A stretch of 64,000 nt of DNA from Candidatus Omnitrophota bacterium (GTDB lineage: Bacteria; Omnitrophota; Gorgyraeia; Gygaellales; Profunditerraquicolaceae): contig JAUYBI010000071.1 of NCBI GenBank assembly GCA_030693145.1, positions 10,354 through 74,353 on the forward strand. Reading direction: 5' to 3'. Shown here piece by piece: positions 1,510-50,600 of this stretch (position 1 is the first letter of the stretch; the number at the start of each line of letters is the position of its first letter). Both the position numbers and the translations under genes were made by a program. The notes under the pieces were generated by a model, which was not told where the DNA came from, searched no databases, and saw only the letters and a list, made by a program, of their open reading frames with translations.

Positions 1510-1532
1510 ATTTTTTAGAGGAGGTGAAAAAG

Positions 1533-1889: not shown

Positions 1890-1903
1890 GGAGGTGAACA
1901 AAG

Positions 1904-2564: not shown

Positions 2565-2565
2565 A

Positions 2566-3681: not shown

Positions 3682-3691
3682 TAAAATAATT

Positions 3692-5317: not shown

Positions 5318-5322
5318 ATAAA

Positions 5323-5529: not shown

Positions 5530-5531
5530 AA

Positions 5532-6377: not shown

Positions 6378-6379
6378 AT

Positions 6380-7261
6380 ATGGAACTCGCGCTGATTATT
6401 TTTTTGTTGTTTATCAGTATTGGATTTGCGGCCTATCATATTTCTAACCGTAAGCTGGTGGAAGAGGTGCATCTGCCTTCTGAGATTACCGGCCCGTCGG
6501 CCTCCGGGCTAAAAGCATTTAATTTTAAAAATATTTTAAGCGGGCCGGTCAGTTTTATCGAGCGCCTGTTCGGCAAATCTATGCTCTCTTTCACTTCGAG
6601 CGATTTGCATAAACGCTTAGCTTCCTCAAATAATAAAATGAGCGCCAGCCAGTTTATGATATTAAAATTGTTTATGGCCGGGGCAGTGCCGCTGGGTGCT
6701 TTTATTGCTGTTCACGCAGAACTCCTGATACTGATTATTTGCGCCGGCGTTGGTTTTATTTCACCGGACATCTGGCTGAATAACTTGATTAAGAAAAGGC
6801 GCGCCCTGATTGTGAAAGACCTGCCTTTGGTAATTGACCTTTTGAATATCTGCGTAGGGGCAGGCCTGGATTTTATGGTGGCGGTTAACCGGGTAATTCA
6901 GGAATTCAGGCCCTGCGCGCTGATTGAGGAAATGAAGATAATGGCCCACGAAATACAAATGGGCAGTGCCCGGCGTGATGCGTTAAAGAATATGTCCAAT
7001 CGCATCAATAATCCTGAGATCAGCTCGTTTGTGAGGACGCTTTTACAGGCAGACAGGATCGGCTCGCCTATTAGCGAGGCATTAAAGATGCAGTCAGAGG
7101 AAATCCGCCTGCGCTGGTTCCAAAGAGGCGAAGAGATGGCCTTAAAAGCTCCGATTAAGCTGTTATTTCCCCTGTTGGTATTTATCCTTCCAGTAGTTTT
7201 AATCATTGTTGCCGGCCCTATTTTGCTACAGTTTACCCAGGGCGGAATGATGAAATTCTAA
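6380..7261 (+). CDS. tadC: Tad pilus assembly inner-membrane platform protein, T2SS-F domain (TadC-like)
   Basis: Second T2SSF-domain protein immediately downstream. Region LPLVIDLLNICVGAGLDFMVAVNRV...ADRIGSPISEAL with terminal TMs. ORF track 6380-7261. Confidence 0.7.
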   Translation: MELALIIFLLFISIGFAAYHISNRKLVEEVHLPSEITGPSASGLKAFNFKNILSGPVSFIERLFGKSMLSFTSSDLHKRLASSNNKMSASQFMILKLFMAGAVPLGAFIAVHAELLILIICAGVGFISPDIWLNNLIKKRRALIVKDLPLVIDLLNICVGAGLDFMVAVNRVIQEFRPCALIEEMKIMAHEIQMGSARRDALKNMSNRINNPEISSFVRTLLQADRIGSPISEALKMQSEEIRLRWFQRGEEMALKAPIKLLFPLLVFILPVVLIIVAGPILLQFTQGGMMKF

Positions 7262-26600: not shown

Positions 26601-29600
26601 AGCGGAGATTCGTTTTCTTCAATTTCGCAGATATATGTGTACTTACAGGATTGTTTCGCGCAGATTCCGGGGACGCATTACTTAATTTAAAAGTTGGCTC
26701 ACGGCGCGACGGCGGCAGGGTTCAGGGGGTGTTTGCGGTTTTAGGTGTTGGCGCATTAGGTGTGTTTTTCTTAATTTCCAGCTTGAAAGATTTAATTCTG
26801 ACAGTTTCTGGCGTAAACGGCATTAGCTTGGTATGGGTGGCATTAAAGCTGTTAATGGGCAGCAGCCTTATTTTCTCCAGCTATTCGTTAAATTATCTTA
26901 GGTTAGAGGCGGCAAAAGTAAATGGGCTTGTAACAAAGGGGCCATACAGTTTCTCAAGAACTCCTGTTTACTTGGGGTATATTTTAGCCGGTACTGGTTT
27001 TGCGTTTAGTTTAATTCTCTCCGGGGAGTTATATTCAGTATATTTTGCGGCTAATTCCGCGGCTATAATATATTTATATTTGGGAGTTTATAATGAAGAG
27101 AAAACGCTCGCGAAACAATTTGGAGAAGAGTATAGAAATTATCAAAATTCCGTTCCGAGATGGTTTGCGTTTAAGTTATTTTGGAAGGTGATAGTAAAAA
27201 AAGCTGATATTGACAGCCACCGGTTAACACAAAAAGACGGCGGCGCAGGGGCGTCGATAATTGAAAAGTTGTTAAATGCAATTAAACCCCGCGCGGAGAA
27301 TCTTTATTTGATTGCTTCGAGGTGGGATAATCTTAAATCTATTTCTTCTACTTTCCGCTCTACTTTTATCAATCTTAAATCTATTTCTTCTACTTTCCGC
27401 TCTACTTTTATCAAGCGTAAACCTATTTCAGCAACTTTCTCCCACGTTCTGGCTATGGTAGTTTCAATTCCGTCAATTCTTCTATTAATTGATTTTAGCT
27501 CTTCGCCAAATACCCTAAACTGGCTTCTTAGATCTTCAATGAGCACCGCCACTTCTCCCGCGGTCATTGTGGTTTTATTTTTAGCATTCTTATCCATAGC
27601 AGTAATTATAAGCGACAGAGTGAATTCTGTCAAGAATAATAATTTTACCCTTGAAATTAAGCGCTCTTATGCGATTAATCCAGCCCGCGACGGCGGCACA
27701 GGGACGATGTTACAGAATAAAATTGCAGCTACAAATATGGAACCAGAGGTTAAGCTTATGTTAACACGCAGGGGTTTCTTGGAAATTGGCGCTGGTATTG
27801 TTGGCTTGGGATTAAATCCGGGAATAGGGGGCATTAAAGAATTAGCAAATAAGTTTGCTGGTTTATTGAAAGGCGAAGAAATAGTTGATTTAAATAATCT
27901 TTCTGTTGACAGAGAGGCGTTAAAGCAACACGTAACAAAATTGGCTAATATCGGTACAAGAGCAGCCTATTTTAGAAATACAACTAATATTAACAAGGCT
28001 AAAGATTATATTGTTGGTTGTTTAGAGAAACTGGGATTACAAAGAATACATAATCCAATAGGGAAAGGATATATTTTACAGCAGTTTACAATGCAAGAGA
28101 TTTATGTTTATCCTAGAGACGATTATCCTTATTTAGACTATGAGTTAAAGTCATTAAGAAATCAAGAAAACATATCGTCTGAACAAACATCAGATCAATT
28201 GCTTTCCGTAAAGATAATGTCGTCACTGAAAACATTGCTATCGTTTTTACAAATCCGAAAAGAGGATAAATCACTTTTTGAGCTAAATATGACCATGCTG
28301 AAAGAGGCTGGTATCAAAGTTCCTGGACCATATGGTCCGGTAAAAGTACTTAAGAATGATTTAATCGTTGAGGGCACAAATATTATTGTTAGAATACCCG
28401 GAAGTAAGAATCCTGATAAGAAAGTTATTCTGGGTGCTCATTATGATTGTTTCAAAGGTGTTGGCGCTAATGATAATGCAACCGGGGTTGCTTGTCTTTT
28501 GGAGGCAGCAAGGATTATTTCGAAGTTTAATTTTGACGATACAATAGAGATTATTTTCTTTACCGCAGAAGAGGACGATAGTTTAGGGAGCAGTTTTTAT
28601 TTAAAAGAATTATTTGAAGAAGAAAAGGCCAATATAAAAGGGGTATTTATTGTTGATATGATTGGTAATAATAAAGGAAAAGATGAGCCTGAAGGGGAGG
28701 AAGATCTTAATTTACTGTATGATAGATATAATCCGGAAATATCTAAAAAGCTAATTGAAGAGACTGTAGAAGCTATACAGAAACACGTTTCGGATTTTTC
28801 AGTAACGGCTAATGAAGATGAGGGTTATGATAGTGACGATGACCCATTCCAAAGTGAAAGAATACCTACGATATTGTTTAGCGAAGATACCGGTGAAGAG
28901 CTTACAACTCAGAATGAGTTTTTTAACGGGGCGCAAGACACAATAGAGCATATAGATTTTGAAGGGTTTTTCCCCAAAGCAGTAAAAGCGGTTATAGTTT
29001 CCGTTATCGTACAAAGTAACTCTAATAAAGACGGCGGCGTAATTGGTTCTGCTATTATATTACTGGTTCCTGGCATTTGGAACTCAATGTATATGCAGTT
29101 GATAGGGGTGAATAGGCCTGGCATAGACCGCATCCTGTATGAAACCGGCCCGCCGGAAATTAAGATTGGAGTTATCAAATATTTATTTAATAGATTTAGC
29201 CCTGGCTCAACCAGTGTTTCTCAGCCTACCGTGGCAGGTATTTCCTTTAAAGCCCGCGCGGAGAATCTTTATTTGATTGCTTCGAGGTGGGTTAGCCGTT
29301 TACTGAAATCTTCTTTGATAATTCGTACGTCTTCTTCTATCTTAGCAAGTTTACCGTTCATTCTGGTTAAATCGTCTTTTATCCCCGCTGTCCTTATATT
29401 TAGCGTAGTAATATCTTCCCTGCTCTTTGCCACCATACCCATTGTGCTGTCTAATTTGTCTCTAAGCGCATCTTGGCCTTCACCGAGAAGCTCAATCCCT
29501 GAATGGACCTTTTCGAGGATTACCGCAAATTCCCGATCTTTATCAAATTCTTTGAGTTTCTTTGTCTCTTTCTTCATGCTAAGCAATTCCGGGAACACAT

Positions 29601-32600
29601 TACTTAATTCCCAGCGCGGCGGCGGCGCAGTTTTTATTCTTTTCGGTGTTTATGATGCGTTAGACGGTCAATACAAAACCAAACACCAAAAATCAGCACA
29701 ATTAATAATAGGGTTACTACCGCAGTCATTTCTATTATTTAGTATGATGAGAGTGAAGATGGCGGGGAATCGTGAAAATCCCGATAAGAATAATAAAAAT
29801 CAAACCACCAATCAACATAAACAGCAAACCGTTCATAATTATTCAACTCCTTTATTAAGCATAGTGGCAATGATAAAGGCTGCCATAAAAAACATCAAAC
29901 CTACCATAAATACACTAAGACGAAATTCAATTCCTGAGACGAATTGTCCGATTACTAACGCCGCAAATACTAATTTACCTATATCGTACAAAGATTTAGA
30001 CAATTCCTTTCAATTCTTTCTTATAAAAGATTCTGGGATAAGCAGATCTATTAACAAAGCCAAGAAAGATTCAATGGCGGATAGGGTGATGTTTGCGGGG
30101 GGTAGTAAAGAAGATACCCAAAAGCGCAATAATTATTATTATCAGGAACGTGAAAATCAAGATCATTTATCCTCCGAATTTTTCAATAGCGTTAGAGCCC
30201 AAAACACCAATATCACAGTAACACCCATCCCTAATATGATAGTTAATAATTTAATAAAGAGTTTTTCCCCTGAGAATATGGGATTTAGTATTACAACAGC
30301 AATTAGTAATTTACTTACATCAAATAGAGTTTTTGCTAATTCTTTGGATTGGTTCTCATTTAGCCGCATAGTTAAATATATACTACTAGAAGAGATTGTT
30401 GTCAAGCCAAATTATTTTATAGTAGCAAACGATGGATCTGCGACCGACGGCGGCATACTTAGTTCTGCTATTGTATTAGCGGCTCCGGGTGTTTGGAACT
30501 CAATTTATATGCATTCGATAGAAGGGATCAGGACTGGCGTAGACCTTTTATTATATGAAACCAGTCCGCCGTATACTGTTATTCTTCCTGATGTTTTCCT
30601 CCCAATAGTTTTCGTCTTATTATTATCCGTAATAACAAATTCTAAACTAAATTCAGCAAGATTTAGCCCTGGCTCAACCAGTGTTTCTCAGCCTACCGTG
30701 GCAGGTTGGTTTGTGTTGGCCGGGGCTATTTTATTTGTTACCCAGCCGCTGCTTACCTTAGGGATACTTACCGTGGCAGGTATCTCCTTAATTGGTGCGG
30801 CTATTGTTGTATATGGGGGCTTCGCAGGCATTATTCCTGCCGGGGCCCCCATTGCAACAAGAAAGGGCAGCGTTCCCGCGGTTGCGGATGGGGGAAGAAA
30901 AGTAAATATTGATAAAGTTACGATGACAGGCGATTGGCGGAGCTCAATAGCTAGAGTAGAAGAAATACTTAAATTGGTGGAAGATGCTTGTTATCGCGTA
31001 ATTATGGTAAAACAAGGGAAAGTCGATGCTGATACGATAATAAAGATAAGAGAGAATTACAAGGGAAGAAAACGGGATACAGCTATAGATATGAAGCTGG
31101 GTAAGATAATAATAAATGATAATAGAGAAACATTGCGTATATATAATATTCTGAGTAAACAGCAAAAATTTGTGGATATTTTTAATATTTCTATTAAAGA
31201 AGATGTCCGCGGAGCGGCAGCTCAAACATTTGGAAACCTGGCAAAGGAATTAAATATTCCACTTGAAAAGATCTCAGAAGGGTTGATGGAAAAAGGTGTA
31301 AAATCAGGAGAGTTTGAAACAGCCTTTGTTTTGTTAGAAGAGGCAAAAGACAAAATATTTATCGCGGTACAGGAGATATTAAATATCGATATCAATGAAG
31401 AAGGAGTATATAGCATTGGAAATGAAGGTGATTTTATAGATGCCCAAGGCAGACGCATAGATTTATCTGACTATAAAGTTGTAAGCCATATTCATTATCA
31501 TCCCGGAAGAAAAGACGGATATCCTGTTCCGTCAGCGTTTGATTTGGGTTTATATACGCAGCTATTGTTTAGTAATAATGAATTTATAGGCATTGTTTTT
31601 GGCAACGATACTCAAGATAAGCTTATATCCAAGGCGTTTGTCTTAAAAGACGGCAGAGACCTGGGAAAGTTAAAGCTCGACATAGAGAATTTGCTAGAGG
31701 AGAGGCAACTCTTGGAAGAAAAAGGCGTAACGGAAGCTAACCGTAAAATATTTATTGGTATGTTTGAAATTTTTATCAATGAATATTTCCGCATAATTCA
31801 AACCGAAGATTTTAAGATAAACGAAAATTGCGGAAAAGAAGCCGACGGTGGAGAAATAATAGACCCAGGCACTTATGAAACGGCTCGGAAGATAAACTGG
31901 AATGAATGGTTTTTAAAATATGACGCGGTATTTTTCCTTAATATAGTGACGTTGTTTACCCCTAGGGATGCTAAGGCAATAAGCAAGACTATAGAAAAAC
32001 TTAAGGAATTAAGAAAAATTAATCCCGGTAAGTTTAAAACAGCGTTAGAAGAAAACAAAGATTATATAAGGGGTAAGATTCTTAACAATATGAGGAGTGT
32101 TGCCAAACAGGTAACACATACAGAAGAATGGCTTTTTGGTGACGTGGACGCATTATCATACGATAAATTGGATATGTTAATGGAAGTCTTTCCAGAAGCA
32201 TTTATAGAAGCAACAGAAGAAAGAACCAATAGCGAATTAGTTGGAAACTTTAAACTTGCGACTAAAGGTAAAGAGCTTATGCATAAGGCAACAAATTCTA
32301 TGGGGCAAAGACTATTGGAGCAAGAAAATAAAAATGTAAGATATTTATTGGCTACCTTATTCACAGAGGGCATGGATAAAAAAGAAGAGCTAGATAACAT
32401 TAGAGAAACAATAGCCGCTCTTAGTAGAGCGGATATAGAGGACAATATTTTTGTCTACTTATCTTTATTAATAAATACAAATGTAAATAAAGAGTTAGCC
32501 CCGAAGGTCGCCAGAGCAATAGAAGGTTTCTTAGCCGAGAGGGGGATAAAAGGTAATATTAATCCGGATAGTTTAGTAGCAGAATATAGCAAAATAATAG

Positions 32601-35600
32601 AAAATGGCCGAAGGATAAAGCATATCGCCATTAATTTAGAAGCTGTATTTGGGAAGGATGTTTTAATAATATGGGATAGTTTATATAATTCTTTACAGGG
32701 CAAGAGGCAGTTTCAGATAAGCCGGATAGTGGAAAGTATCAAATCGGGTGTGGGGAGCCTGAGCAAGAAAGGCGCGGTGAATGTTCTGGTTGCTTCCGGT
32801 GATATGTTAGGAGAACAAGGCCACAAACAGATTATCGAACCATTTAACAGGGCATATAATAGCGGCATAGATCTGGATAGTAGAATAAAAGAAGATTTTG
32901 GAGTAACGGAAATAAAAGGTGACAAGGTTATTATAATCCGCGCTGAAGAGAAGAATGTGTTGAATGGGGCGCCCGCCGTAGTGAATATAATAACAGACGG
33001 AGAAATGCCTGTTGGGATTATAGACGCGGTAGTAACCGGCCTGTACGAGCAAGGGGAAAAGAGTTTTATCAAAGGGTTTATGAATCTGTATGAAAACGGA
33101 GCAGAATTAGTATTGGGTTACAAAGTACTTGATATAAATGGCGTAAGGGTAAAATTGAAATACGATAACGAAGAGAAAAAAGAATACCCCGTAATTTACA
33201 TTACTATAAGTATGTACGACGTCGCTAAGATGTTAGAAACAATAGCCGGAAAAAACTGCGCTTTGGACGGCGGTAAGGATTCGCAAGATACGGGTTATCT
33301 ATTGAGTAAAAATGAGGTTCGCGCGGCTACTTTGGCTGGGGTGGGGTTAGTTGTTTTATCCTTTATTCTTTCAGCGTATGGTTTTGAAGATTTAGCAATT
33401 GCCAGCGGAGCGATTGGGTTTATGTTAACTGCTGTCGTAGCGATAACCTGGTTAGCCATTAAAATTAATCCTCAGATTAAAGAGGTTTATTTAGAGGCGC
33501 TGGAAAACGCTAATGAGCCGGTGGCCATATCAACCGTTTCCGGGGAGGAAGAAATTTCTAATACAGTTTTACCAATGGAAACAGAAATGAGAATAGAAGG
33601 GGATATTATTCATCACAATTTCTCTCCCAGCCGGATCGGTGAAAATAAAGCAAACGGGTTAATCACTAAAACAGTTGCAGCAATTGATAAGGTTAACAGC
33701 GCCGCAGGCGTTAATTCTGCATATATGAGCCGCTTAGATATGTTAGCCGGATTATGCCTTTCTAACGGAATTATCGGAGTTTGGTATTTTATTAAATATT
33801 GGAATGCGTATGGAATGGACCCGACCAAGACCTGCGAACAGTTGCTTTTGGGTAAGCAGGTATATGGTTATCCTCACCCGCGGCAAGTCGATATCTGGCT
33901 GGCTTGGAAAGATAACGCGCCCCTGGGTTATGCCGTAGCGTTAGGGCCAGATAAATACCGCCATATAGCTTATGTAGCGGTTGTTCCTGCAATGAGAAAG
34001 CAGGGAGTTGGGCTTAATTTAATGAAAGAGTTTTTTGAATATGCCAGGAGCCAGGGAATCGCAGAGTCATCTTTACATGTTAACGCAGATAATCTAGGGG
34101 CCTTGGGATTATATAGGAAAGCAGGTAGGTTTGCGGATAAAGTAGTAGAAATGGTAAAGGAAACCCCGTCCGGCATTGCTCAAATAAGAATGGAATTTTC
34201 TATTAATCGCGGGAAGGGAGACAACAAGCAGGCTGACGGCGGTTTGCTTAGGGCTGGGCCGGTGTTTAGTGAACGTGCTTGTGGCGATATTGATCGATCC
34301 CCAGCCAAACTAGGATTACGAGAATTATGGCGCTTAGGGTTAAAAGGGCGGTCATATCAATCTTCCTCCAAATTTCCTTTTGGGCAGACAAAAATTGCTC
34401 CTACCACTGAAAGAATCGTTGTTAATATAAAAGCAGTTTTCCACGGCATCGCTGCTTTAAGGAAGGCTTCTGAAATAAATAAAGCAATTACTAATGCCTG
34501 GAATAAATTTATTAAAGCTTTTGCAATTAACCGTCTGCGCGAATCTGTCCAAAATACATCTTCTTTCATTGAAAAAATACTACCATATCTTATTAGAGTT
34601 GTCAATAGCAATAACTTTAGAGATTCTTCGTCGCTGACGCTCTTCAGAATGACGAGGAGAGTAATTGAATTTGACGGCGGCAGAACGATAGTAGATTTTC
34701 TAAAGAAAGTTCCGTTAAAAGTTTGGCTTTTGATTCTCGCGGCTGTTTCACTTTTATTATTCAACGTACCTACGGTAACCGGTGCTTTGGCTGTTCCGGT
34801 TCTGGTGGTGGTGGGGATAACAATTTCCGGGACAACAATCGCGATTTTGGTACTTATAGTAATTATAGGAGTGTTGGCTGTTAAGAAATCTTGGCCTGTC
34901 ATAGCTCACCTTGCGGGTTTTGCTGGGGTATTGTTTGGCGTTTCGAAGTTACCGTTAATATACGCAGCAGCAAGTAATTTTGGTATGTTAGGCGCGTTAG
35001 GGTCATTTGTTGTTTCTACAGGAATAATCGTTGGCGCGATGTTCTTCTTCTTCGCGCTTATTGTAGATTATAAGAAATACGGGAAAGCAGAATTACATTA
35101 TACAGGTAAAGGCATTACTTCTTCCTTAGAAGACTATCAGATGCTTGCTTTGCAGGATATCGCGAAAGAGTATTCAAAAGAGTACTCAAAAAATAGTTTC
35201 AGCACAAAGAAGCTTTATTCGTTATATAAAAATAATCCCCGTTATCTAATAGCTGCGTTTGCGGCTGGTTTTATTATCGCGGCTGGTTTTATATTATTTA
35301 TTCCTACAGTTTTTATTGCAGCTACTATCTTAGAATCGTTGGCGTTAGGCGTATTGTTCCCTTATCTTGCGCATGTATTTCTGGATTTCTTTGGTAAATA
35401 TTCATTCGAGAATTTACATAATGTTGAAAATTTACAAAAGATTAAAGATTCTAAGGAGTTTGAAGAACGAGCTAAAAAATATAAAGGCGAGCTTGAGCGG
35501 GTGCGCAATCCCGAGACAAGGGAAAAAGAAGGAACTACGGATTATAGTGTGTTTATCTACGAATCAAGGATTATTCGCGCTAAGTTAGCCTTTCGCTTCC

Positions 35601-38600
35601 CGCTGGAATTCGGAATTGCCCAATTTTTTACACAGAGGCTCGTTTTCGCAATCGGTTCATTCGTTCTCTCAAGGGCGATAGTGCCTTTGATTATCTCCAA
35701 AGAGACGGCAATGGGCGCGTCTTTAACCACAAGCCTCGCTAATTTACCTTGGGGGATTGGAGCTACTTTAACTGGCTTAGGATTTGCTTTAAGTATAGAA
35801 GGAATTTTAGGTATCCTGATTCTTGCTTTTTTCCTGGGCACATTACGTATTCCTGAAGAGGCAAAGAGCTTGGTTAAAACTTTTCAGAATAAAGGAGGGA
35901 AGATGGGCGAGATTTTTATTACAGCCTGGAGCCCATTAAGCAGGAATGATTTATTCGATAAAAAAACAGACTCTGCAGATTATACGGATTTCAAAATTAA
36001 GATATACACAGTTGTTTTCTTAAGCAAGTTTTTGGCTTTCCTGCCGTTAGCGGTATTTACCGTGTCATTATTTACCGCGCCCTATCTGGCTTTAGTTATT
36101 GGCGTAATTTTGGGGGTCATTCTTTTAAGCAAAAAGATGAAATTAATAAACAATTTTTGGTTAGGTTTTTATTCCTCTCAACTTGAAAATTTACTCCGGA
36201 GCAGCGGAGGCTTATTTATTGTGGCCGGAGAAATTGGGATGGTCGTTGCTTATGGCCAATATATTCCGGTGGTAAGCTTAATTGTCCAAGCATTTGAAGT
36301 GGATGCGTTAAAGTGGGGCAATCAAGTAGTTGAGAATGTTGAGTATCAATCGGGAGTTTCTTTCTCCGGGGAAGTTTATCATACCTTAGGCGGAAAAGAA
36401 GATTTGAACGTTTGGTGGAATGATGTTTATAAAGAAAGAGAACTGCAGGAGAGTAAAGTCTTAAAATCCTCCGAAAGATTATCTCCGATCGCTGCGGTAA
36501 AATTGGAAGCTATGAATAAACAAATAGCCAGTGTTCCAGAAGCTTATTATTTCCAAAAGATAGGCGATGGCAGCCAGGCGGTTAGGGTTTATCCTCCGTT
36601 AAATGATGGGGAAATAATGAACGCAAAAGTTGTGGATGTGAATGGATCGGTTGTTTTTGAGAAAAATTATACGCGCGGGCCGCCGGTGATCTTAACTGTT
36701 GAGCAGCTTGGTTTAGGCAACAAGACTATTCTTGTAAACAATCAGAGTTACAACATCAATTTTACCTCTTTCCCTTCCCCCTTACCTAAAGGATATGAAG
36801 CAGCGGTGGGCTTAGAAGACAAAGACGGCTCATATGTTTGGTTTAATGCTACCGATTATTTCTTCAAAGATGAGTTTCTACCCGACGCAAATACGAATAA
36901 CGCAAAACTGGATAAACTGGTTTTTGATAACGGGCTGAGATTACCCGATAACAGCAGTGTAAAGGGCGTTATAGATATAAATATACCTGATAATAATCAG
37001 ACACTTCGTTATAACTTCGCAAGCGCAAATATAAACGGAAAGCCTGCGAACTCCTCCTACTATATGCCAGGCGAAGCAAATGCCTCTAACAGCCCGCTTG
37101 ATAAATCGAGAATTTATCTAAATGCGGAAGAGTTTGCAAAATTACATTCAAATGAAACCACGGCCAGCGTGAATATGAGCGAAAAAGACATTAGTGCTCA
37201 AGTTGCGAATTTACTTAAGTCAGGGTTTGATAATTTTACGATAGCCGCTGTTACAGAGAAGAACGTAAAGGTGATAGATACGATTATAGAAGAATTGAAC
37301 AAGCCGAGTGCAACGGTTAATGTAGTTAAAACGCCGTCCGGAAGTGAAATTAATAAGTCGATGCCTACTGCAAATGAAACTGAAGTAATTGTAAACGAAA
37401 CCGGCTTAAAGACATTTGTGTCAGATAAGAATACTGTTCGTTATTATCCGGAAATTATTAAGGTTACCGTAAGCTCAACTAATAAAACTGCAGGCGTATA
37501 CGCTAAGGATATAGATAGTTATAAAGGTAAAGATTGGGGATTCTGGTCATTTATCGGGAGATATCTTGACTGGAATGATATAGCAGTTACTTATACTGAT
37601 GCGCTTGGCAATCTAAGGCAGGGCTATGTAAGCGAAGACGCGGACATTAATTATTCTTATGAGGAAGTAGCCGAGTTGCTAACAAAAGAAGAGACGGCTA
37701 AAAACATTACGAACCCGAATGTTACAATTCCTCCAGTCACTGTGCCTAAAGAGTACAATCGAACGAAGATTATACCTGATTTTCCTCGTGAGGGCACAGG
37801 CGGCGGAGGAGGAGGAAACGAACAATTTCAGCCAACGATAGGGTTATCAATTCCGGAATGGTATTTTTATTTCCCCACTACACACAGCGGGTTTGAGCGA
37901 TTTGATTGGACAAACAGCACAAACCTTACCGGCTATCCAAGTGCTAAGGTAGCTTTTTATACGTTATATGTTAGAAACGCAACTACAGGAAGGGATGATT
38001 TGATTTTAAACACCGGGAATAATATTTCAACTATGGATATTTTCCCGGGCATTATATCTGACGGCACGTATGATGTTTCCGTGAGGGCATTGTCCGGGCA
38101 ATGGGCAGCTTCCGGGACAGTGGTAAGTGAAAAGAGCGCTTCTGTAAGAGTAAACGTAACTACTGTTCCCGATCCGGCGCTTAATTTAAATGCCAGTATG
38201 TCAGGCATAAATCTTACTTTCAATGAAATTTTTCCTCCTATGGAAACGTTTATACTTCTTACAAGGTCAGACGGCGTAATTGAGATGATAAATGTTACTG
38301 GCGAGAATCATCATGTATTCTACAATCTGCCTGAGGCCATGCATAATGCTAAGATAGTGGCTATAAACGGGGTTACCAGCCGCGGCAATATCACTGATAA
38401 CAACTTTAATTTTATTTACTCTAATCTGACATGGCCCGATATGCCGGCGAGTAATTCCACCGATGTAAACGGCAGGGCAGTTATTGAATTCCAGAACGGC
38501 ACAAGATTACTTCCCGCAAATATTAAAGAATTATGGGTAAAGGTAACCGGAAGTGAACCCCCGTTCCGAAATATTGGAACCGGCGCATTATCTAATAATG

Positions 38601-41600
38601 GAACGAACGTTACTTTTACTTTTGGGAAGTCTGATAATAATAGAAACGTTACCTTAGAATTTTATGCGCTGAATATGTCAGACGACAGGCAAATCCGTCT
38701 GAGCTCTCCAATAGTGATACCTGATGTAGATTCAGACCCATCGCCATATACTATCCCTGCCATTAGTAATTATTTCCAGAATGGTGGTGGAGATGTTACT
38801 ATCAGGTTAAATCAACTGCTGCCTATTAATATTACAGGCATGGGGATGAATGTTTCCTCTTTAAATAACACCGCTGTAAGTAATTTCTGGACGCTGAATT
38901 TAACCGATGTATATAATGACAGCACAAACAACATTACTCTCAAGCTGGGTGAGAATCCGCAGGTAGCAGGAAGAGAGATAACCTTTGCCTTAACTGGATT
39001 CGATAATATAGGAAAGAAAACTGCGGATAGCGGCGCAGTGCATTTTGATATGATTAATCCTAAGGTAAATATTAGCTTACCGGCAATAACTGGAACTGAT
39101 AAGAGCCAGATAGATTTGGGAGTAGGCCAGAACGCTACGATCAACTTTACCATTACCAACCCGGGAAATTACGCCTCAGTAAGTGATTTGCTTGCCCAGA
39201 ATAATACCTTAGCCTGGGAAAGCCTCACCGGCGCAAACCAGAGCCTGGCTCAGGAAATTGTCAGAACCGGAACCGCCACCATCTGGTATCAAGCAAATAA
39301 AACCGGGAGTACCGAGCATTATACTAACCTGACCTTTAGCGGCATAGATAGCTCAAACTCCATAGCTTTTACGCCAGGGTTTAATGTTACTTATGCTGTG
39401 TATTCAGATGAGGGTTTAACCCGGTTCAGCAGCTTTAATGAGCCAACAACATTCAATATTGCTCTTGGCGGCAACCACACTGTAACCGGCAGCGTGGTTA
39501 ACTTAGCCAATCTCTCGAAAGTCAACGCAATCGACGCTGACCTGTATTATCTGAATAACACCTTAAAACAAGAGAATGCCAGGATCTTCAATACCACTCA
39601 AGCCCAGGCAGGGTTGAATAACGGCCAGTTAACCTTTAGCTATGACGCCAATAACTCCGGCAGCGGCCTGATCTTCGCTAACCTGCGTTCAGTAGATGCC
39701 AACAACACCCGTTCCCCAGTCAGCGCCAACAACTTAACCATCACCTATCCGGAAAGTATTGACCCCGGTTTAACCCGCTTTAGCAGCTTTAACGCCCCGA
39801 CTACTTTTAGCATTAACCTCGGCGCTAACCACACGGTTACCGGCACCGTGGTTAACCCCGCGAATATCTCCAGAGTCCAGGGCATTGACGCGGACTTATA
39901 TTACTTAAACAATACCTTAAAACAGGAAAATGCCCGCATCTTTAACGCCACGCAAGCCCAGGCGGGTTTAGCCTCAAGCAGCCTGACCTTTAGCTATGAT
40001 GCCAACAACAGCGGTCTGATCTTTGCTAACCTGCGTTCTGTCGACGCCAACAACACCCGCTCGCCAGTCAGCGCGAACAACTTAACCATTACTTATCTGG
40101 AAAGTATCGACCCCGGTTTAACCCGCTTCGCCAGCTTTAACGCCCCCACGGCTTTTAGCATTAACCTCGGCGCCAACCACACGGTTACCGGCACAGTAGT
40201 CAACCCTGCGAATATCTCTAAAGTCAACGGCATCGACGCGGACTTATATTATTTAAACAATACCTTAAAACAGGAAAACGCCAGAATCTTTAACGCTACG
40301 CAAGCCCAGGCTGGTTTAGCCGCTAGCAGGCTGACCTTTAGCTATGACGCCAATAACTCCGGCAGCGGTTTGATCTTTGCCAACCTGCGTTCTGTCGACG
40401 CCAACAACACCCGCTCCCCAGTCAGCGCCAACAACTTAACCATCACCTATCCGGAAAGTACTGACCCCGGTTTAACCCGCTTTAGCAGCTTTAACGCCCC
40501 GACTACTTTTAGCATTAACCTCGGCGCTAACCACACGGTCATTGGCACCGTAGCCAACCCCGCGAATATCTCTAAAGTTAACGGCATTGACGCGGACTTA
40601 TATTATTTAAACAATACCTTAAAACAGGAAAACGCCCGCATCTTTAACGCCAGCCAGGCCCAGGCCGGTTTAGCCTCAAGCCGCCTGACCTTTAGCTATG
40701 ATGCCAACAACAGCGGTCTGATCTTCGCCAACCTGCGTTCAGTAGATGCCAACAACACCCGCTCCCCAGTCAGCGCCAACAACTTAACCATCACCTATCC
40801 GGCTACCAATGTTTCAGATACACTCTCTGATACCGTCCTTATGCCTAATATTACTCCTCCTAGCAGTATTACTACTTATGACGGCACTTGGAGATTTAAT
40901 TTCAGTTCTCCGGTGAATGTCTCCGGCACCAAAGAGATTCGTTTTGAAAATGTCACGGTTAACGGCACAGCTGAACCTTATATTTGGATGATGGCCAATG
41001 ATTCAGCAAATGTCAGCCTTATGCTTGGCAAAGGCACAGGCGAATACATTAATGGTACGCTGAACAAAACCTTATACAATAACAAAATCATCCGCGGCCA
41101 ATTCAGGTTTGTGGATCTTAGCGGCCGGTTCACCAATTTAAGCGAATTAGTAGAGATTATCGACCCGGATCCGGTTAATATTACTATTGAGACAAACAGT
41201 TCAACTCAGGTAGCGAATACATCAGCCGCCTCTAACATAACAGAAACAAGCAATAGCTCAATTACCGTTACTACTGCGATGGGTATAGAACAGATGACTA
41301 CAAATACTACTGGCATTATTAAAAGCACAATTATAGATGCTAAGGGCGCGGTTAAAGCAAGTATTGAGAATAATTTAGATGAAGAGACAACTATGGTGCG
41401 TGATAGTAATGGAGTTCTTTTGTATATCGGCGGCGGCTTTGGCGCGCGCACCGTAGCGGCAATCGATAGCGAAAATTCAACCGCTTATTTAACGCGGAAG
41501 GATTTAGTGCGTAATGTTATGTATTTTGAGAAATTTTCTATTGATAAAAACGGAAAGCTTGCTTCTATTCCTGAAGCGAAGATTAATCTTGATGGCACTC

Positions 41601-44600
41601 CTTACAATTTTGATGGTCAAGGGCTGCATTATTTCAAGAAAATCAACCGTTCCGCGGTAACCTCAACATTGGATGGCTGGGCAATTTATCAGCAGGCTAA
41701 CGGCGATAAAACAGTAATCTCAAATCCTGACGGCACACCATTCAGCAATATCAACAGCCGTGTCAATTACAGCGCATATTTGAACGATACAGTCAGGCTG
41801 ATGAACGATACCGCGGCAGTAAAGTTATTTAGCGGGGATATTATTAGGGTTAAATATTTTGTATATTATAAAGGCATCGATGGTTATGACGAACGCTTAA
41901 ACGGGATCATTACCGATAATTACCGATTTATATCCGCTAATCAGATAGATAAGGGTATTTTGGTTAATGGGACAGAATATAATTTTGTCCTGCCCAGGAC
42001 AGTAAGCCCGCTTTGGTCCGAACGATTTATAGCGCCGAATCCTTCCGCGGAGTTTTTTAATATCAGCAATGTTACTAAAGATGCCGCGCGGGAGATGGAA
42101 GTTCCGGATGGAAAAGGTTATGTTTCCCTAGAGGATAGCGGTAATAGTTCTAATGTAGTTCATGATGTGGCAGTAATTCCGTTAGAAACTTCCGGCAACT
42201 GGCAGTTAGGTTCTGAGCAGACGATAGGCAACAGGCAGATAATTATCTGGGTAAATAACAGAATAAATGTTACCAAGGTAAGAGAGGTAGATTTAAATGC
42301 AAAAACCATAAACGTTTCATCCGCGGCTAACCCCAGCAGTTCACCGAGCGACGGAATAGGTTATCGGGACATCATTATCAATAAAAAAGGGAATGTTAGC
42401 ACGGAAGGAAAAATAATTAATCCTATACCTGAGCCAACCGGTAAGCTGACAGACACTATGCCCGCAAATGATATTGAGAAGGAAGCTGTTCTTGCCATAG
42501 CGCGAAATGCCAGCATAGAGCAGGCGTATCCCCATATAATCGAATGGTCATCATACAAGGTTATAAGGGGAGAAAGAGAAGGTACTCTTGTATACCAGAT
42601 GTATAGTTCAGCAGGAGATGCCTCAGGAGCGCTTGTATTTGAATGGAATCCCAAGCAAAATGCGGCAACGGTGTGGGGAGATGCCTCTCATCCGTACTGG
42701 ACAGTGGATACGCTGAGACAGCGCGGGGAGATCGTAGACTTCATATTAGGCGGAAGAAAGATTTCCGTAAACAATGTTATCAATGAATATGATATATCCA
42801 GAGTAGGCGGCCAATCTACGGTTGAGACAATGAATCTGCTGAAGAATGAAGTGGTTACCGACAAATATTCCGGCGCGATTGCTTCGTCTTCTACCGTTCA
42901 AGAGATAAAGAGTTATTTCGCCCAGAATGGCCTTATATATGCGGCAGATAAAACCGGAAAGATAATGCAGTTAATTATTCCGGCAAATTACAATTCTAAA
43001 GATGGAAGCCGCCAGGTCATTGCCGTAGATTTAAATGATAATAAGTATCGCATAGAACTGCGCACCTACAGTCAAGAAGGCAATCGTCTGTCAACCGTTT
43101 ACAGTACGCACAGCGTAGAACATACTTACAGCCCGGATTTCTTCCCTGGATATCCGGTGGAAACAAAAGTTATTCCTCGTGAGTTGACCGGAGAAATAAA
43201 TTTCACGGAGAAAGAAATTTTAATAAACCACTACAATAAAACTTTAGCTGTTAGTGCTTCCACCTGGATGCGGGCTGATGAGCTTTTCACGGATGGGGAA
43301 ATCGCCAGGATGGGATTACAACGGGATACGCATTTATACGCGTTCCTGTATATTAATATTAAGGAAGGCAAAACCTCTATCCGCTATAAAGATGAATCAG
43401 GGACGGTTGAAGCTGAAAAAATTGGGGATAAGCTTATTATCAGAGGCCCGAATTACCTGATGAGCGTTGATGACGTGAACACCTACGACGCCGCCCTTCA
43501 GGCTTATAAAGCTGCTATGAACGGAGAAACAAAGAAGGCCAGGAGCATTATTAACACTTACATGAAACTTCATAATCCGGAGCAGGGTATTTTATCGGTG
43601 CGTTACGATACCAAAGGCCGGACAATGAAAGAAAAATCCTTCAAAACCGGAGAAATTCTGTGGATGGCTATGGCCAGCAACAAAGTTTCGCAAAACCCGG
43701 GAGATATTTACGATACCTTCTCTAAGACATTATTGGAAGAAATTTACCAACAGCGTAATTCGACGAATTCGCCGAACGGGCTTATTGTTGATACGGGGGT
43801 AAATGGCGTGAGTTCAGAACAGATGCTGGATGCTTATTCAACGGCTGTCAAAAATAATGATATTGCCAAGGCTAATGCCACACTGCAGTGGTTGATTAAT
43901 AACACGTTCACCAAAGAAGGTAACAATCTGGTGTGGATTAACCGAGGTTACAATGATCGGCTCTGGGCAACAGACGTTGCAACCTGGTCAATTCTCAGCA
44001 TCAGCCCGGAAACACTCGCTGGAAATAATATCGAGCCTTATCAGGTTTATCAGTTAATCGTCAAAAACAGCGAAGTAACCGTTTCTTGGAATAACAGAAC
44101 GATCACCGGCCTGGATACAAATGATCAAAATGAAAGAAATGCTATAGGCAGAGATGGTGAGATTAATACTGAATGGACTGAAGGCGGTATAATCGCGTTC
44201 TATAAAATCGCGAAGTATTATATCAATAAGGCCGATGACGCGGACAAAGCCGGGAAACCGGAATTAGCCAAACAGTATCGCGGCTGGGCCAAAGAAATAA
44301 TCGCGAAAGCGGATTTGTATAATGACGCGATGGATAAGCTTACCTTCGGCGGTGGAGTCCTGGGCACAACTATGGATGGAGCGTTAACTTTTACCAAAGA
44401 GCACAGCGGCTGGAATTTGATTCAGGAACCGTCTGTTGCCGCTACAACCTGGAAAAGCTTCATACAGAGAAACGACGACACACGCAGCTGGTACAATCCG
44501 TTTAGAGATGAATATGAAGCCCTGAAATTCAATTCCACGACCAATGCCTCTAATATTCTGTCAATCAACGAAACAGATTTTAGGGAAACCATGAACAAAG

Positions 44601-47600
44601 AAAATTTAGCCTGGTTGAATAAAGACACTAATGCCGTAACCGGCTTGCGGTCGTCTTTCTCCTACGAATATCTGAAGCTGCCCACCAGGGGCGTAAGGCC
44701 GTTTGATAAGAATAACTTTACCGGCGAATATACTCTTCCTGCTTTCTCCGCAGAAGGAATTTACGGGGATGAACTGAGAGCAAAATACGGCTTCACTGAC
44801 CTGCAGATGAAGTTTATCAATGTGGCTAATGAAACCTTCTTGGACGGCGCCGGCGCGTTTAATCCTAAAACAGGATTGTACGAGACTTCTTATTACGAGA
44901 GTCCGGCCGGCAATCCGAAATTAGTGAAGTGGTTTAATCCTGAAACCGACACCTGGCAGTTGACGCTTAACCGGCTGGATTATGATGGTGAGATTCTGGC
45001 CAGTATTGCTACCGCTTATACTCCGGATATGAACAAGCTGGATAATGTTGTTTTCACTTACGAAAGAAATAGGGATTTGGACAGGTATCAATTGGCTGAG
45101 GCCTTAAGGGCAAAAGGGTTATTCATGACCGCGGAAGATATTACCGGGGGCGACATAAGGGCTGTTCTTGATAACGGCCAGTCTTGGCTGGATAACAACA
45201 AACCGAATATTGACGCCTGGCAATCAATTTTCAAGTATTCCCTGGAAACCGGGGAGTCCGTGGAATTAGTTAAGATTAGCGATAATAAGGCTACAGTGGC
45301 TTTGTTGGATGATAATAAAAAAGAAACCGGCGGAGTAACTTATGAATATGGCCGCGATAATTCCTCCGGTAGGATTGTGTTGGGAGAAGTATTGGGCAAA
45401 ACATTCGTTGTCAAAGAAACGAATACTACTAAAGATATTCTTAATATTGACTTTAAGCGGCAGCTCATGTGGATTGAAACGAAGAGCAAGGCTGACGGCG
45501 CGATAATCAGGAGATTCGACGGCGAATATATTAATGGCATACTTAACGAAGAGATAATCAATGATCCGGCGGTATTGTCCGATTTTGTCCGCCAAACCCG
45601 TGCCGAATTAAATTATAGCGGATTCGATAATTATACTTTATCGCATCTGCGTTTATTGAACATAGTCAATGAAACTAAAACCAATGCAACGATTAGCAAA
45701 GATGTTATAAGTTTATCCCATCTTACTAATCTTGATGTGAATGATAAAGGTTATTTAAGAGTTGTCTCTTTAAGGCAGGATACAGTATTTCCTGAAAATA
45801 TAACCAGATATACTGCAGAAGTGAAAGATGTTAAAGGATGGCTGCGAGAGAAGCATTATGGCGATTATATTAACGGAAACTTTACATCCGATATGAAGGC
45901 GTATTTGTTCTATAAGAACGGAGTAGGCAGATACGGCATACCATCAGAAGGCATTGTAACCTTGATAAAGGGGGGCAACGAAAGTATTTTTGCAAGATCG
46001 AATCATTTAGCGCCCTTACTTCCTAACGGAGATTTAATCTATGCCGCGGCGCAAGGCTCTGCTTATATTCCAAATACAGACCTAAAGTCCGGCGAATCTA
46101 ATTACGATAAACTACAACAGGCCCTTTTAAACCATGAGATTAAATTTGATTGGATAAGACGCTCTTGGGAGGAGATAAAGAATAATAAAGGCAATCTCAA
46201 AGTGATTAATGACTATAACCAGATTAATTCTTCAACCGGTTTTCCGGAAGAAAACGTAGACCCTATTTATATAACTTTTCTTGAATATGGAAATCCTCTT
46301 TCTCTTCCGGGGGCGAGCCAGCGTAATATGGGGGCATCTAAAGACAGTTACACTTATGACTATAAGGACAATGATACAGCTTCGTATACTGAAAGTTCCA
46401 ACATAAATCAGACAACCGGCGAAACAGAATATAAATGGAAGCCCGGCTGGCAGGCAAAAGTAGACAATTTAAGGTTTATTGAAGAGGGAAAATCCGGGTA
46501 TATGCTTTATGATCAGGCAGATAACCGCCAGAATCGCGCTGGAAAATACCAAATGGCTTTGCGTTTAGACGGCAGGTCTTATTACGAGATACTTAAGAAT
46601 CAGGTGGATGTTTTCGGAAACCGTTATTATAGATGGGGGGTGGATGATATAGTCCGGGTTGTTTATGATGAGCGCGAACTGCCTTTGGTAACCTATAAAA
46701 TAGCTGATAAAAATTTTGGCTCGCTGGAAAAAGAAGAGCCGCTGTACAATCATTTTGTAGTATTTATAGATAATGAGTATGGCCATATGTTCGTCTGGGA
46801 TAGGGATGTCAACAATAGCGGCTTAAGCGGCTATCGGTATGGCTGGGATGAGTTTGTAAATGGCAATCAGGTTTCACGTTCAACGCGCAACGTTCAGCTT
46901 TTATCTAATGATAGTGAAGCTGAGCAGTTAGGCCAGAGAGACGGAAAATACTTTGAGAACGGCGAATTATTTTATGAAATTACCGATAGATTTACTCCTA
47001 TGGATTGGCGGTACTTTAAAGCAAAAGGGGCTGATGTTCCTCGGGAATACTTTAAGGTGTTAGCTACTAAATCATACCGAAACGACTGGATCTATAATCT
47101 TTATCTGGAGCCTTTTAAAAGAGGGACATTACTGCCACTGGCAGTTGTTTCCTTAATAGTCAGTATATTAACTCCTGCATTGCTTCCCGCTCTTATAATT
47201 ATCTTAACCATAATTATTTCATTGTCCCTGCGCAAGACACCTTTAGCCGGGTTATTAAAAGCCGCCTACAATAAATTGGTTTATCATAGAATAGACGGCG
47301 TGTTTGGCAATAACGGGAAAGCTCCTTTTGTTGCGCATGATGGGCCAGAGAAAGATGAAAAGAAAATTAATCCCGCCATAGAAAAGAGAATAAAAGAAAT
47401 TGCCCCGGATCTCTGGCTGTTTGATCCTTTCGTCAAGTATCTTTGCATCCTTTATGAATCAAATATGAAGATATTGCTGAATAGATTCTATGAGGATAAT
47501 AAAGGGCCAAAAGATGTTGAGAAAGCCATTCTTTCCCTGCAAAGAAAAATAATAGAAGAAAAGATTAAAAATATCGATCCGGATAATGAAGAAAAAATGC

Positions 47601-50600
47601 TGGAAATTAAGGAAGAATTTTTCATCAGGCCAATCGCCTATTTTTTCATTAAAGTTTTTGAAGCTATGCATAAAGATTTGGAAGACCGCGGCGCGGGAAG
47701 AAAAACAATGGAAGGCAAAGGCCGGATTATTATTACGGATAAAGAATTAGGGATGTTTATTGATTGGTGCATAAACGAAAAATCCATAGATCCCATAGTT
47801 AAAATTGGGGCTGTCCGGTATTTGAATGATTTATTCACAATATCGGCGCAAGACCTCGGCACGCTAATTAACAAAAAATTTGATGAAATTGAGAAAGTTG
47901 TAATAGAAATATGCAAAGAAAAGAATCTCGAACCTTCGGTATTTCCTATTACTGTTAGCCGGGGTGTTAAGGTTATTGTGGCGGGGGCGCTTGTTGGTCT
48001 CATGCTAGTATTGCTATGGGCTTCTTTAGGAATTATTCCTTTATGGGCGGAATTACTATTGCTATTGGCTTACGGCTTAGCTGCCCGGGATATATGGAAT
48101 ACTTTGCCTTATTTTAAACTCAGTTTTTATTATTTACCTAAGATTATAAAGACCATACGTGAAACATCTTTTACGGGCGAAAGGACTAAATCCTCTATTA
48201 AGATCAAAGAAAGGTTCTTTAAGGTTTATTTTGGTTGGTTTGGCGTTACCAATATTATTCTTTTCTTGGCTTTTCTATATTTCAGTTGGGGAGTTATGCC
48301 ATGGATTGGCTGGCTATTTGCCCTAATAATATTTGCGCTTAATCTCCGGGAGGCTTTGCGCGCCTGGTGGTATTTATCTTTGGAAGCCGGCACGCTCGCG
48401 GTGGAAGATGAAGAGAAACTTAACGTGTTTAACCAGTATAAGGATATCAGTAAATATAAAATAGACGGCGATTATATTCTTGAATGGGTGCGTAGGGATA
48501 GTTTCTTGAAAGATGCTTATGAGCATATTCTGGTGGAAGGGACATTGCGCGAGTTCTCCATGGTTACTAAGGAAGAAGCCGAACAATTAATGCGGGCGCT
48601 GTTGTCCACAAGCGGCGTTTTGCCTGCGCTGGACAACTGGCGCGCGAGAAAACTTACCGTGCAGTTCTTTAATAAGGTTGTGGTGTATAAGGCGCAAAAC
48701 CTTTCTCCGGAAGCGGTCGACCTTAATACTCTTAAGCGGTTATACTTTTTGATGACCGGAGTCAGTGAGTTGGTCCTTCCCAGCGCGAAATCTTTAGACG
48801 CGGTGAAGATAAAGGATATTTTTACCGGAAAGATTGTCCCGGTGATTAAGACTACTTTCAGGCTGCTTATGGACAGATTCAGTGAGGAGTGGAAGATATA
48901 CCTTGATGAGGATTTGCTGGGCGGTATCAATAACAGCGAAAAACAAGAGCTAATTAAAGAACTTCTTAAGCCGGGGGTAACTTTTAAAGCCAGCGTTGAA
49001 AAAATAGCCGAATTTACCGGTAAAGATAAAAAAGAAATTGAAGCCAGAATTCTTAAGGAGTGGGTAGCTTTCCGCACCACCAACTTTTATAAGACAATAA
49101 AATCCCAATATTATTCCGCTATTTTAGCCTATAAATTGTTGTTTAAACATAAGTTCCCCGGGCTTTCTGATGAGGGCGTAGAAAAGAAGGTAGAGGAATA
49201 TTTAAGGTTCATATTTACTTATCATTTTTATCCTGATTCGGGCAGCCTTAATGATGAAACCCGCGTTATTTTTGAAGAATTCTATAATAATCAGGCGGAG
49301 AAATGGGAATTAAATAAATCCGGCCCGCGCGTCATCGCTAATTTTACCCATCCGCTGGGGACTACCGGCGCTACGGTAAAGACTCAACGTTGGTCGTATG
49401 CCTGCCGGTTCATTGATGAAGACAGCCGTAGGGTTGCGGTATATGGAGAAGATTGGGATCATTTAGCTTTCCCCGTGGATTTCTTTTTACTTCCTTTTGA
49501 TATCGCGGAAACCTCGGTTAATAAAAATATCGGGGTTATTGTGCCGGAATTAAAAGTGGGCGATGAAGATATTACGCCGGTTAATACTAATTTGAGCATT
49601 TCCGAAAATAATTTTAACACGCGGGTGCTTTTGGCGGAAAACGTGTTCGGCGCCCATTCTGAATACGGCCCGACTATCTGGGACTATTCCGTTCTGCGTA
49701 AATGCGCGGTGTATCTTAGCTATATCGAAGACAGCTCCCAGGGAGATGAGGCTTTAATGCGGGGATATGAAATACTGCGAAGCCGCAGGACGATTTTAAG
49801 AAGAGGCAGGGAAAAAGTTTACCTCTATATGTTCGCTTTTGTTAACAGGTTTGGCGGCCTCGTAACTAACGCGCTATTCAGTTTGCGGTTTCAATTGCTT
49901 ATGAGGAGCAAGAAGCTTCATAAAACCGAAAAATACGCTCTTTTGCAGAATTTTGACTACTATATTAATAAAGTTATTATACCCCGGTACAATTTTATTA
50001 TATTCTTTTTTGGTTTCTTCTTATTATTCACCCCGTTTAGCCATTTTGCTCCCCCTGTCATTTTTATAGGTTTTCAGAATATCTTAACCCAGGCAATTAC
50101 CGCCGGCGGTATCAGGACATTTATTAACGACCATCGGGAGGAGAAACATCGATGGAATAGAGGCTATTGGGGATATGTAATTAGATTACCGAGCTTGGTC
50201 TTTAATTACCTGGCGTTTATTCCTCTGCATGACTCAAAAGTTCAGAAGGCGCTGGGGGGCGCAAGCGGTTTATTTACCCGCGGCCAGAAACTTACCAACT
50301 ATCCTCGGATATCTTTCACAGCAATATTTGATATTTTTGCTCCCGCTATTTATTGGGGGATTGTGCTTTTGATTGTTCTTCATTTTGCCCCGGCCCATCC
50401 TTACGGCGTGGCAGGGCAGTTATTCTTCTATATTTTCCCAATAGCCTTTATCTGGGGGGCGTTTACGAGTAATGGTTCTTTGCTTAAGGGTATAGCGTAT
50501 GGATTCCTAGCTATCCCTTACGCGCTCTTTGTATATCCTTTTGTGAAGTTGTTTAAATTAGATATTGATAATGTGGATGAGAGCCCGAAAGAGCCGGATA

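Follow-up and report, generated by a model that had tools for sequence, protein, structure and literature searches.

A window of 64 kb from contig JAUYBI010000071.1 of an Omnitrophota nanobacterium was analyzed; all coordinates refer to this window and are nucleotide positions unless stated as residues. Most of its plus strand is taken up by one giant open reading frame (ORF) of at least 18,445 codons (>55 kb), which is free of stop codons and still open at the window end (Table 1). About 6 kb at 36300-42400, which a first-pass annotation had singled out for its density of N-x-S/T tripeptides (sequons), were found to be an internal piece of this ORF and not a separate gene. The ORF is missing from the list of 13 ORFs of at least 150 amino acids (aa; translation table 11) in the 64 kb since it is open at the window end.

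The giant ORF and its helix-free loop

Based on a hydropathy scan only, approximately 40 membrane helices were predicted in the whole giant ORF, 38 segments having a Kyte-Doolittle (KD) value of at least 1.7 and 57 of at least 1.4. The product begins with a putative signal peptide or signal anchor, the hydrophobic segment of which was located by hydropathy at residues 22-40; a cleavage site may be placed by the A-x-A rule. The C39 domain, with Cys 228 as the predicted catalytic residue, was seen on scanning the first 500 aa alone, while a scan covering 5,000 aa from the N-terminus gave no Pfam match (E<=0.01). The N-terminal 4.85 kaa (thousand amino acids) contain no membrane helix and, past C39, no Pfam domain. 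They are followed by a block of helices with embedded enzyme domains, and then by the loop which includes the region flagged earlier.

Table 1. Features of the 64-kb window, in order of position
Feature	Position	Strand	Basis and remarks
Locus resembling Tad/T2SS (type II secretion system)	979..7261	+	2 pilin-like ORFs, 2 unassigned ORFs, 2 T2SS-F genes
Flp/class-III-signal-like pilin ORFs	979-1182, 1342-1509	+	Pfam pilin matches weak
T2SS-F genes	5532-6377, 6380-7261	+	Pfam
Giant ORF	8669..64000	+	ATG 8669; no stop 8666-64000 (frame from 8666)
Putative signal peptide or signal anchor	8669..8806	+	K-rich n-region, hydrophobic WIRAVAFIVIAVFL, AQA, then MGYD
N-terminal region, 4.85 kaa, helix-free, predicted exported, sequon-depleted	8816..23365	+	Hydropathy, sequon counts
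Peptidase C39 (double-glycine peptidase) domain	9452..9778	+	Pfam PF03412, E 2.6e-7, 31 bits vs cutoff 22
Block of ~30 predicted membrane helices with embedded enzyme domains	23447..36295	+	KD scans, Pfam
ICMT/PEMT-like domain	25757-26035	+	Pfam
SPase II-like membrane segment, borderline	26189-26656	+	Pfam, 24.0 bits vs cutoff 25
Peptidase M28	28379-28960	+	Pfam
GNAT acetyltransferase	33890-34126	+	Pfam, E 2.8e-13
Weak helix TM42, last before loop	36212-36295	+	KD 1.56, residues 9183-9210
Helix-free loop, 3,609 aa	36296..47122	+	Hydropathy, composition
Sequon-dense core of loop, 1,930 aa	36626..42415	+	108 N-x-S/T, median spacing 14 aa
Degenerate fifth repeat copy r0	~39071-39412	+	hmmsearch with repeat profile, i-E 2.8e-6
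Repeat r1	39413-39766	+	Tandem Repeats Finder (TRF), alignment
Repeat r2	39767-40114	+	TRF, alignment
Repeat r3	40115-40468	+	TRF, alignment
Repeat r4	40469-40816	+	TRF, alignment
Distal loop, W/Y-rich, apparently globular	42416..47122	+	Mild sequon excess, 26 vs ~18 expected
Hydrophobic 37-aa stretch ending loop, then K/E/Cys-rich cytoplasmic-looking segment	47123..47233	+	Hydropathy, composition
HEAT repeats	58883-59863	+	Pfam; neutral sequon content
Cytidylate-kinase (Cmk) domain	61907-62590	+	Pfam, E 2.8e-11; neutral sequon content

Among the long (>500 aa) helix-free segments of the protein, the loop has the lowest content of K+R (9.1%) and the highest of N+S+T (26%). Not one of its 3,609 residues is a Cys, against 7.4 expected at the protein's own frequency, and both of its flanks are K/E-rich. 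The orientation of the chain was deduced with the GNAT-bearing segment, which is expected to be cytoplasmic, as the reference. K/R counts alternate across the helices at residues 8686-9154, as the positive-inside rule predicts, and the long K/E-rich connectors fall inside. After the helix at residues 9136-9154 the chain would be inside (SKKMK), and the weak segment at 9183-9210 would lead it out. Because of this alternation, the K/E-rich flanks, the lowest K+R and the lack of Cys, the loop is predicted to lie outside the cytoplasm. The resemblance to surface proteins and adhesins proposed in the first-pass annotation is in keeping with this, the segment being a membrane-flanked, Cys-free and N/S/T-rich loop whose composition fits a surface or extracytoplasmic part.

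Two minor features of composition were recorded. The Cys residues of the giant protein cluster in its K/E-rich segments. Within the window, negative GC skew (-0.05, -0.11) is confined to positions 38001-42000, where the GC content is also highest (0.44-0.45). A horizontal origin was considered on the basis of the negative skew at 38-42 kb and was set aside, as no donor homolog exists; the skew is probably a consequence of the many Asn/Thr/Ser codons and not of foreign DNA.

Sequon statistics and tandem repeats

The sequon saturation reported for 36300-42400 was confirmed, with 107 N-x-S/T tripeptides in 2,033 codons (5.3 per 100 aa), and the sequon-rich string quoted as an example, NITIETNSSTQVANTSAASNITETSNSSITVTT, is present in the translation. 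Asn, Ser and Thr content is insufficient to account for this number, since composition-preserving shuffles gave 39.8 +/- 5.5 (z 12.2). The background was found to be 0.55 sequons per 100 aa in the rest of the same ORF and 0.43 per 100 aa in 44 neighbouring Omnitrophota ORFs, where 55 were observed and 60.6 expected.

In the core of the loop, 108 sequons stand against ~40 expected (z ~12), a density of 5.6 per 100 aa or approximately one sequon per 18 residues. Here the enrichment over composition is 2.7-2.9x, and it survives both repeat collapse and local block shuffling: after removal of repeats 2-4, 86-87 sequons remain against ~30 expected (ratio 2.85, z 11-13), and shuffling the core globally or within blocks of 30, 50 or 100 residues led to the same outcome. 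The excess is directional, with NxT at 3.5x, NxS at 2.2x and the reversed motif [ST]-x-N at 1.1x. Of the related motifs, N-xx-[ST] (0.95x) and D-x-[ST] (1.06x) are close to expectation, and N-x-N is depleted (0.38x) because nearly half of the Asn residues (48%) occupy sequons. Sequons account for 20% of the Asn residues of the distal loop and for 5-12% of those in most of the remaining segments. Over the whole loop 134 sequons were counted against 55.9 expected from composition, and every 500-residue window of the loop is above its expectation. Eight control proteins, taken from the matches of an exhaustive HMMER search with the M28 region as the query, were all at expectation (z -1.2 to +0.5); they comprise five other giant-protein fragments and three N/S/T-rich secreted proteins.

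The opposite was observed in the N-terminal 4.85 kaa: composition predicts 43-45 sequons and 17 are present (z -4.2 to -5.0, ratio 0.38), and [ST]-x-N, the reversed motif, is exactly at expectation. The N-terminus of the ortholog P0122, encoded by a related Omnitrophota contig (L003), is likewise poor in sequons (ratio 0.48, z -3.4). The remaining segments of the ORF, which are K/E/Cys-rich and include the GNAT, HEAT and Cmk domains, are neutral at 0.9-1.2x. A single polypeptide thus appears to be divided into three regimes (enriched, purged and neutral), both non-neutral parts being predicted to lie outside the cytoplasm.

The four tandem repeats noticed previously were recovered by TRF at 39413-40802 with a period of 354 nt and 4.0 copies, the units being 118, 116, 118 and 116 aa in length. 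Each repeat holds seven sequons (NHT, NxS, NNT, NxT/S, NNS, NNT and NLT). All seven are kept in 4/4 repeats and vary only at x or by T to S replacement; the degenerate copy r0 retains 4/7 of the sequon positions despite its low overall similarity. Nucleotide identity among repeats 2-4 was measured as 88-90%, slightly below the >90% previously claimed, and that of repeat 1 to the other three as 77-80%. The synonymous divergence between copies, with dS of 0.38-0.44 among r2-r4 and 1.2-1.6 for r1 versus the others, contradicts the recent expansion or concerted evolution that had been suggested. Based on the low dN/dS (0.06-0.14) and the predominance of synonymous differences, the frame is translated, and the repeats are old duplicates held by purifying selection on the protein. 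The repeats had also been described as a hotspot for assembly collapse; with copies 77-90% identical in nucleotide sequence, this hazard exists in a weaker form than was claimed.

Structure prediction of the repeats was carried out with AlphaFold2 (AF2) on two repeats, using the repeat copies as the alignment. The model is mostly beta, and its predicted local distance difference test (pLDDT) score of 52.8 is too low for a fold search. In this low-confidence model the sequons are near strand ends. For a putative helical domain of the distal loop, predicted from the single sequence, pLDDT was 37.6.

Homology searches were largely negative. In a collection of 5.8 billion proteins no homolog was found for the sequon core, and no match for the distal loop or for the membrane block before the loop together with GNAT. 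Searches with the loop returned nothing from JGI metagenomes (two scans) or IMG/VR, and there was no match to an exact 31-mer among GTDB genomes or in an exact look-up of a T2SS-F protein. The exhaustive HMMER search with the M28 region did return giant-protein fragments, none of which has a homologous loop. Nothing meaningful was obtained with eight loop segments against Pfam at E<=10, or with the distal domain against PDB sequences by phmmer. The 116-118-aa repeat had no profile match among adhesin-type families (Big, cadherin-like, FN3); its Pfam matches were below threshold (DUF3857, 22 bits; WIF, 21 bits), with no stretch passing alone.

A candidate N-glycosylated stalk and its alternatives

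The interpretation favoured here, with a probability of about one half, is that the flagged region constitutes the membrane-proximal two thirds of an extracytoplasmic loop and serves as an N-glycosylated stalk. The core of the loop would be built of beta-rich modules of ~115 aa, five of which are recognisable and four nearly identical, and selection would have favoured its N-x-S/T tripeptides as acceptors of N-linked glycans, one in about every 18 residues. Glycans attached to these sites would form a dense coat, giving a protease-resistant, hydrophilic stalk or shield, which may place the globular and less sequon-rich distal loop at a distance from the membrane and nearer to prey or substrate.

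The responsible enzyme would most likely be an extracytoplasmic oligosaccharyltransferase (OST) which takes N-x-S/T without an acidic residue at position -2. D/E is found at -2 in 16/108 core sequons (15%), so that the Campylobacter-type signal D/E-x-N-x-S/T does not describe these sites and an enzyme of relaxed specificity would be needed. The OSTs of Desulfobacterota (PglBs) accept N-x-T whatever the residue at -2 (PMC12229607). Selection on sequons is seen in the exported-predicted segments only, and this favours an enzyme on the outer face of the membrane. By extension, Omnitrophota might own a previously unrecognised system of extracytoplasmic N-glycosylation acting on plain N-x-S/T, which shapes giant proteins in both directions; this broader proposal is more tentative than that of the stalk and is put forward at less than even odds.

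Several observations weigh against a glycosylated stalk. Even with permissive E-values, the 64-kb window gave no match to STT3/PglB/AglB, GT41/NGT or any other glycosyltransferase family. The lipid-linked form of N-glycosylation is believed to be confined to delta- and epsilon-proteobacteria (PMC4973528), and in the literature searched no paper ties Omnitrophota to OSTs or to protein glycosylation. The topology is derived from a crude hydropathy scan; it hinges on the weak TM42 (KD 1.56) and needs the 37-aa hydrophobic stretch at the end of the loop to be read as a single pass. Both structure models are of low confidence (pLDDT 52.8 and 37.6). N-P-[ST] is not depleted in the core (2 versus 1.8 expected), numbers that are too small to inform. 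Finally, the loop is without homologs in the collections searched.

The possibility of a built-in OST was raised by the motif WWND (36413-36424), which is located ~40 aa past the last pre-loop helix and resembles the WWDYG motif of STT3/PglB after its last helix. No STT3/GT-C match was obtained at E<=10, and the upstream loops are K/E-rich and cytoplasmic-looking, unlike the external loops of STT3. The motif is probably a chance occurrence and this candidate was rejected. The supplementary files of the two papers on Omnitrophota giant genes discussed below contain no searchable STT3 or PglB entries.

The alternative that survives best, although judged unlikely, is that the sequons serve structure or binding in the beta-rich modules and never receive a glycan, in an organism without protein N-glycosylation. 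They could be, for instance, Asx-turn or beta-bulge caps, or could provide a polar Asn/Thr face which binds polysaccharide or another ligand. The lack of a glycosylation enzyme in the window, the fact that Omnitrophota are not known to N-glycosylate, the beta-rich modules with sequons near the strand ends of the low-confidence model and the undepleted N-P-[ST] all agree with such a motif. However, no 500-aa window of the loop lacks the enrichment, which extends to ~1,400 aa without detectable repeat similarity, and it is strictly directional and favours T over S, as with known glycosylation enzymes. The N/S/T-rich secreted beta-protein controls show no excess. A structural role also leaves unexplained why this very tripeptide has been purged 2.6-fold from the exported N-terminal region in two orthologs. 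With three regimes in one chain, a motif specific to one fold is therefore hard to accept.

The main enzymatic alternative retains the acceptor sites and replaces the OST by a soluble cytoplasmic enzyme of the HMW1C/NGT type (GT41), which would add hexoses before export; this is considered improbable. NGTs do use N-x-S/T and hyperglycosylate large adhesins (PMC3012730, PMC4550697, 10.1101/2020.09.10.281741), and glycosyltransferase and OGT-like TPR domains are common in the Omnitrophota giants that have been published. The enzyme could even be a domain of the giant protein itself, as the ORF continues past the window and leaves room for an enzyme in cis. An enzyme acting in the cytoplasm would, on the other hand, be expected to bring about a purge of the cytoplasmic-looking segments (GNAT, HEAT, Cmk; >5 kaa) like that of the N-terminus, but these segments are neutral. 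Moreover, neither a GT41 match nor a two-partner-secretion (TPS) domain was found in the window. An extracytoplasmic OST thus remains the preferred candidate.

An artefact, in which the repeats would be chimeric or collapsed, or the region a pseudogene or low-complexity DNA without coding function, so that the motif density had no meaning, is effectively refuted: mis-assembly can occur at tandem repeats of 354 nt, and giant genes do fragment in metagenome-assembled genomes (MAGs), the related contigs L001-L003 ending inside or before the gene, but a stop-free frame of 55 kb cannot be chance, the mostly synonymous repeat differences (dN/dS 0.06-0.14) require translation in frame, and each copy is individually distinguishable at 77-90% identity.

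Comparison with known systems and the upstream locus

Giant genes of the 'Archaeovorin' type have been described from Omnitrophota by West-Roberts et al. in 2023 (10.1101/2023.11.21.568195) and in a 2026 survey with 176 complete Omnitrophota genomes (10.64898/2026.06.07.730766). According to both papers, the layout consists of a signal peptide with C39, a long domain-free N-terminus, many helices and an upstream T2SS-like locus. The ORF analyzed here shares with these giants a length of tens of kb, the signal peptide and C39, the domain-free N-terminus, dozens of helices, an embedded peptidase, GNAT and methyltransferase-like domains, HEAT repeats, a T2SS-F/Flp/Tad locus directly upstream and extremely fast divergence. 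Its visible length of at least 18,445 codons is above the threshold of 10 kaa used in the 2026 survey; the published set uses one of >30,000 aa. The SecA_DEAD, glycosyltransferase, glycoside-hydrolase and NUDIX domains of the published giants were not found in the visible 18.4 kaa, the gene continuing beyond the window. Sequons, N-glycosylation and a loop dense in sequons go unmentioned in both papers (10.1101/2023.11.21.568195, 10.64898/2026.06.07.730766), and among the giant-protein fragments retrieved here the loop is without a homolog. The gene class is already known; the loop saturated with sequons, its counterpart in the purged N-terminus and the N-glycosylation that they would imply for Omnitrophota are absent from both papers.

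The adhesin HMW1 of Haemophilus influenzae, modified by the NGT HMW1C, is likewise a very large surface protein with many N-x-S/T (PMC3012730, PMC4550697). HMW1 is a TPS exoprotein encoded beside its own glycosyltransferase, whereas the window contains no TPS (Haemagg_act) or GT41 domain. The candidate described here would be one loop within a polytopic membrane protein, and its pattern of selection along the chain fits an extracytoplasmic enzyme better.

PglB systems are similar in that N-x-S/T is found in segments predicted to be exported and NxT is favoured (PMC12229607, PMC4973528). The 15% of sites with D/E at -2 would fit the relaxed Desulfovibrio type and not the D/E-x-N-x-S/T of Campylobacter. 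Unlike in those systems, neither PglB nor a pgl locus was identified in the window, and Omnitrophota are outside the known phylum range. To our knowledge, 5.6 sites per 100 aa over 1.9 kaa is well above the density in characterised PglB substrates.

Parallels also exist outside bacteria. The gp120 protein of HIV has ~5 sites per 100 aa, similar to the core of the loop. In archaeal S-layer and surface glycoproteins (AglB) and in viral or eukaryotic glycan shields, extracellular beta-rich modules likewise have much of their Asn in sequons. The host in this case is a bacterium, and the sequence is not similar to that of any archaeal protein. Archaea are the prey of Omnitrophota such as V. archaeovorus, although nothing in the present data points to gene transfer from them.

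The giant proteins of Omnitrophota are almost entirely unannotated, and their topology, processing and function are left open in both papers. The observed/expected sequon ratio along the chain is cheap to compute and appears to split a giant protein into three regimes. If this is general, the ratio would provide an independent read-out of exported segments and would predict a glycan-coated stalk. Were the proposal correct, N-glycosylation would occur in a bacterial phylum without a known case, and the OST-type pathway would extend beyond Campylobacterota and Desulfobacterota. An exported segment of ~2,000 residues would be packed with acceptor sites and another of nearly 5,000 residues purged of them, and a giant 'Archaeovorin'-like protein would for the first time be partitioned by function.

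The giant ORF is of Omnitrophota provenance. The adjacent T2SS-F gene of the Tad/T2SS-like locus is 97% identical to two Candidatus Omnitrophota MAG contigs (L001 and L002) and 87% identical to a third (L003), and ~6.5 kb of upstream DNA are 89% identical to these contigs; the close MAGs are JAHIKK01, JAKLQX01 and JAQURC01. Similarity to the two 97%-related contigs (L001 14182-14516 and L002 14182-15789 versus window 8324-8657) stops 12 nt before the ATG of the giant gene, so that the gene is absent or displaced in very close relatives. Past the break, L002 contains a DDE transposase on the opposite strand directly downstream, in addition to AAA/DUF4143 and Bro-N genes. L003 does carry the giant gene (14221-20843 versus window 8669 onward) and ends before the loop. 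Its product P0122 shows 51% identity over the first 700 aa and then 28-30% with large gaps. Evolutionary rates contrast sharply between neighbouring genes, the T2SS-F protein being 87% identical to that of L003 and the giant protein far less. P0122 also appears to be without the ICMT/SPase II/M28 block. A gene of the ORF6N/KilA-N type (phage antirepressor-like) is located at 7457-7969, after the T2SS-F genes and ahead of the giant one, and occurs twice in the 87%-related genome (L003 11789-12354 and 13101-13818).

Within the giant ORF, housekeeping-type domains were encountered, namely the cytidylate kinase, the GNAT domain and the borderline signal-peptidase-II-like segment. The tripeptide DGG is over-represented (22 versus 5.0 +/- 2.0 expected, z 8.3), with GG overall at expectation. 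The 22 sites span nt 15566-58643, one of them (34673) lying shortly ahead of the membrane block in front of the loop, and the 3.6-kaa loop itself has zero. An excess of DGG was also observed in giant-protein fragments, with 8 versus 1.8 expected in P0122, 10 versus 0.5 in P0010 and 26 versus 1.5 in P0011. The motif is unmentioned in 10.1101/2023.11.21.568195 and 10.64898/2026.06.07.730766, one of which states that the cleavage points are unknown. Processing by the N-terminal C39 (double-glycine) peptidase could take place at the DGG tripeptides.

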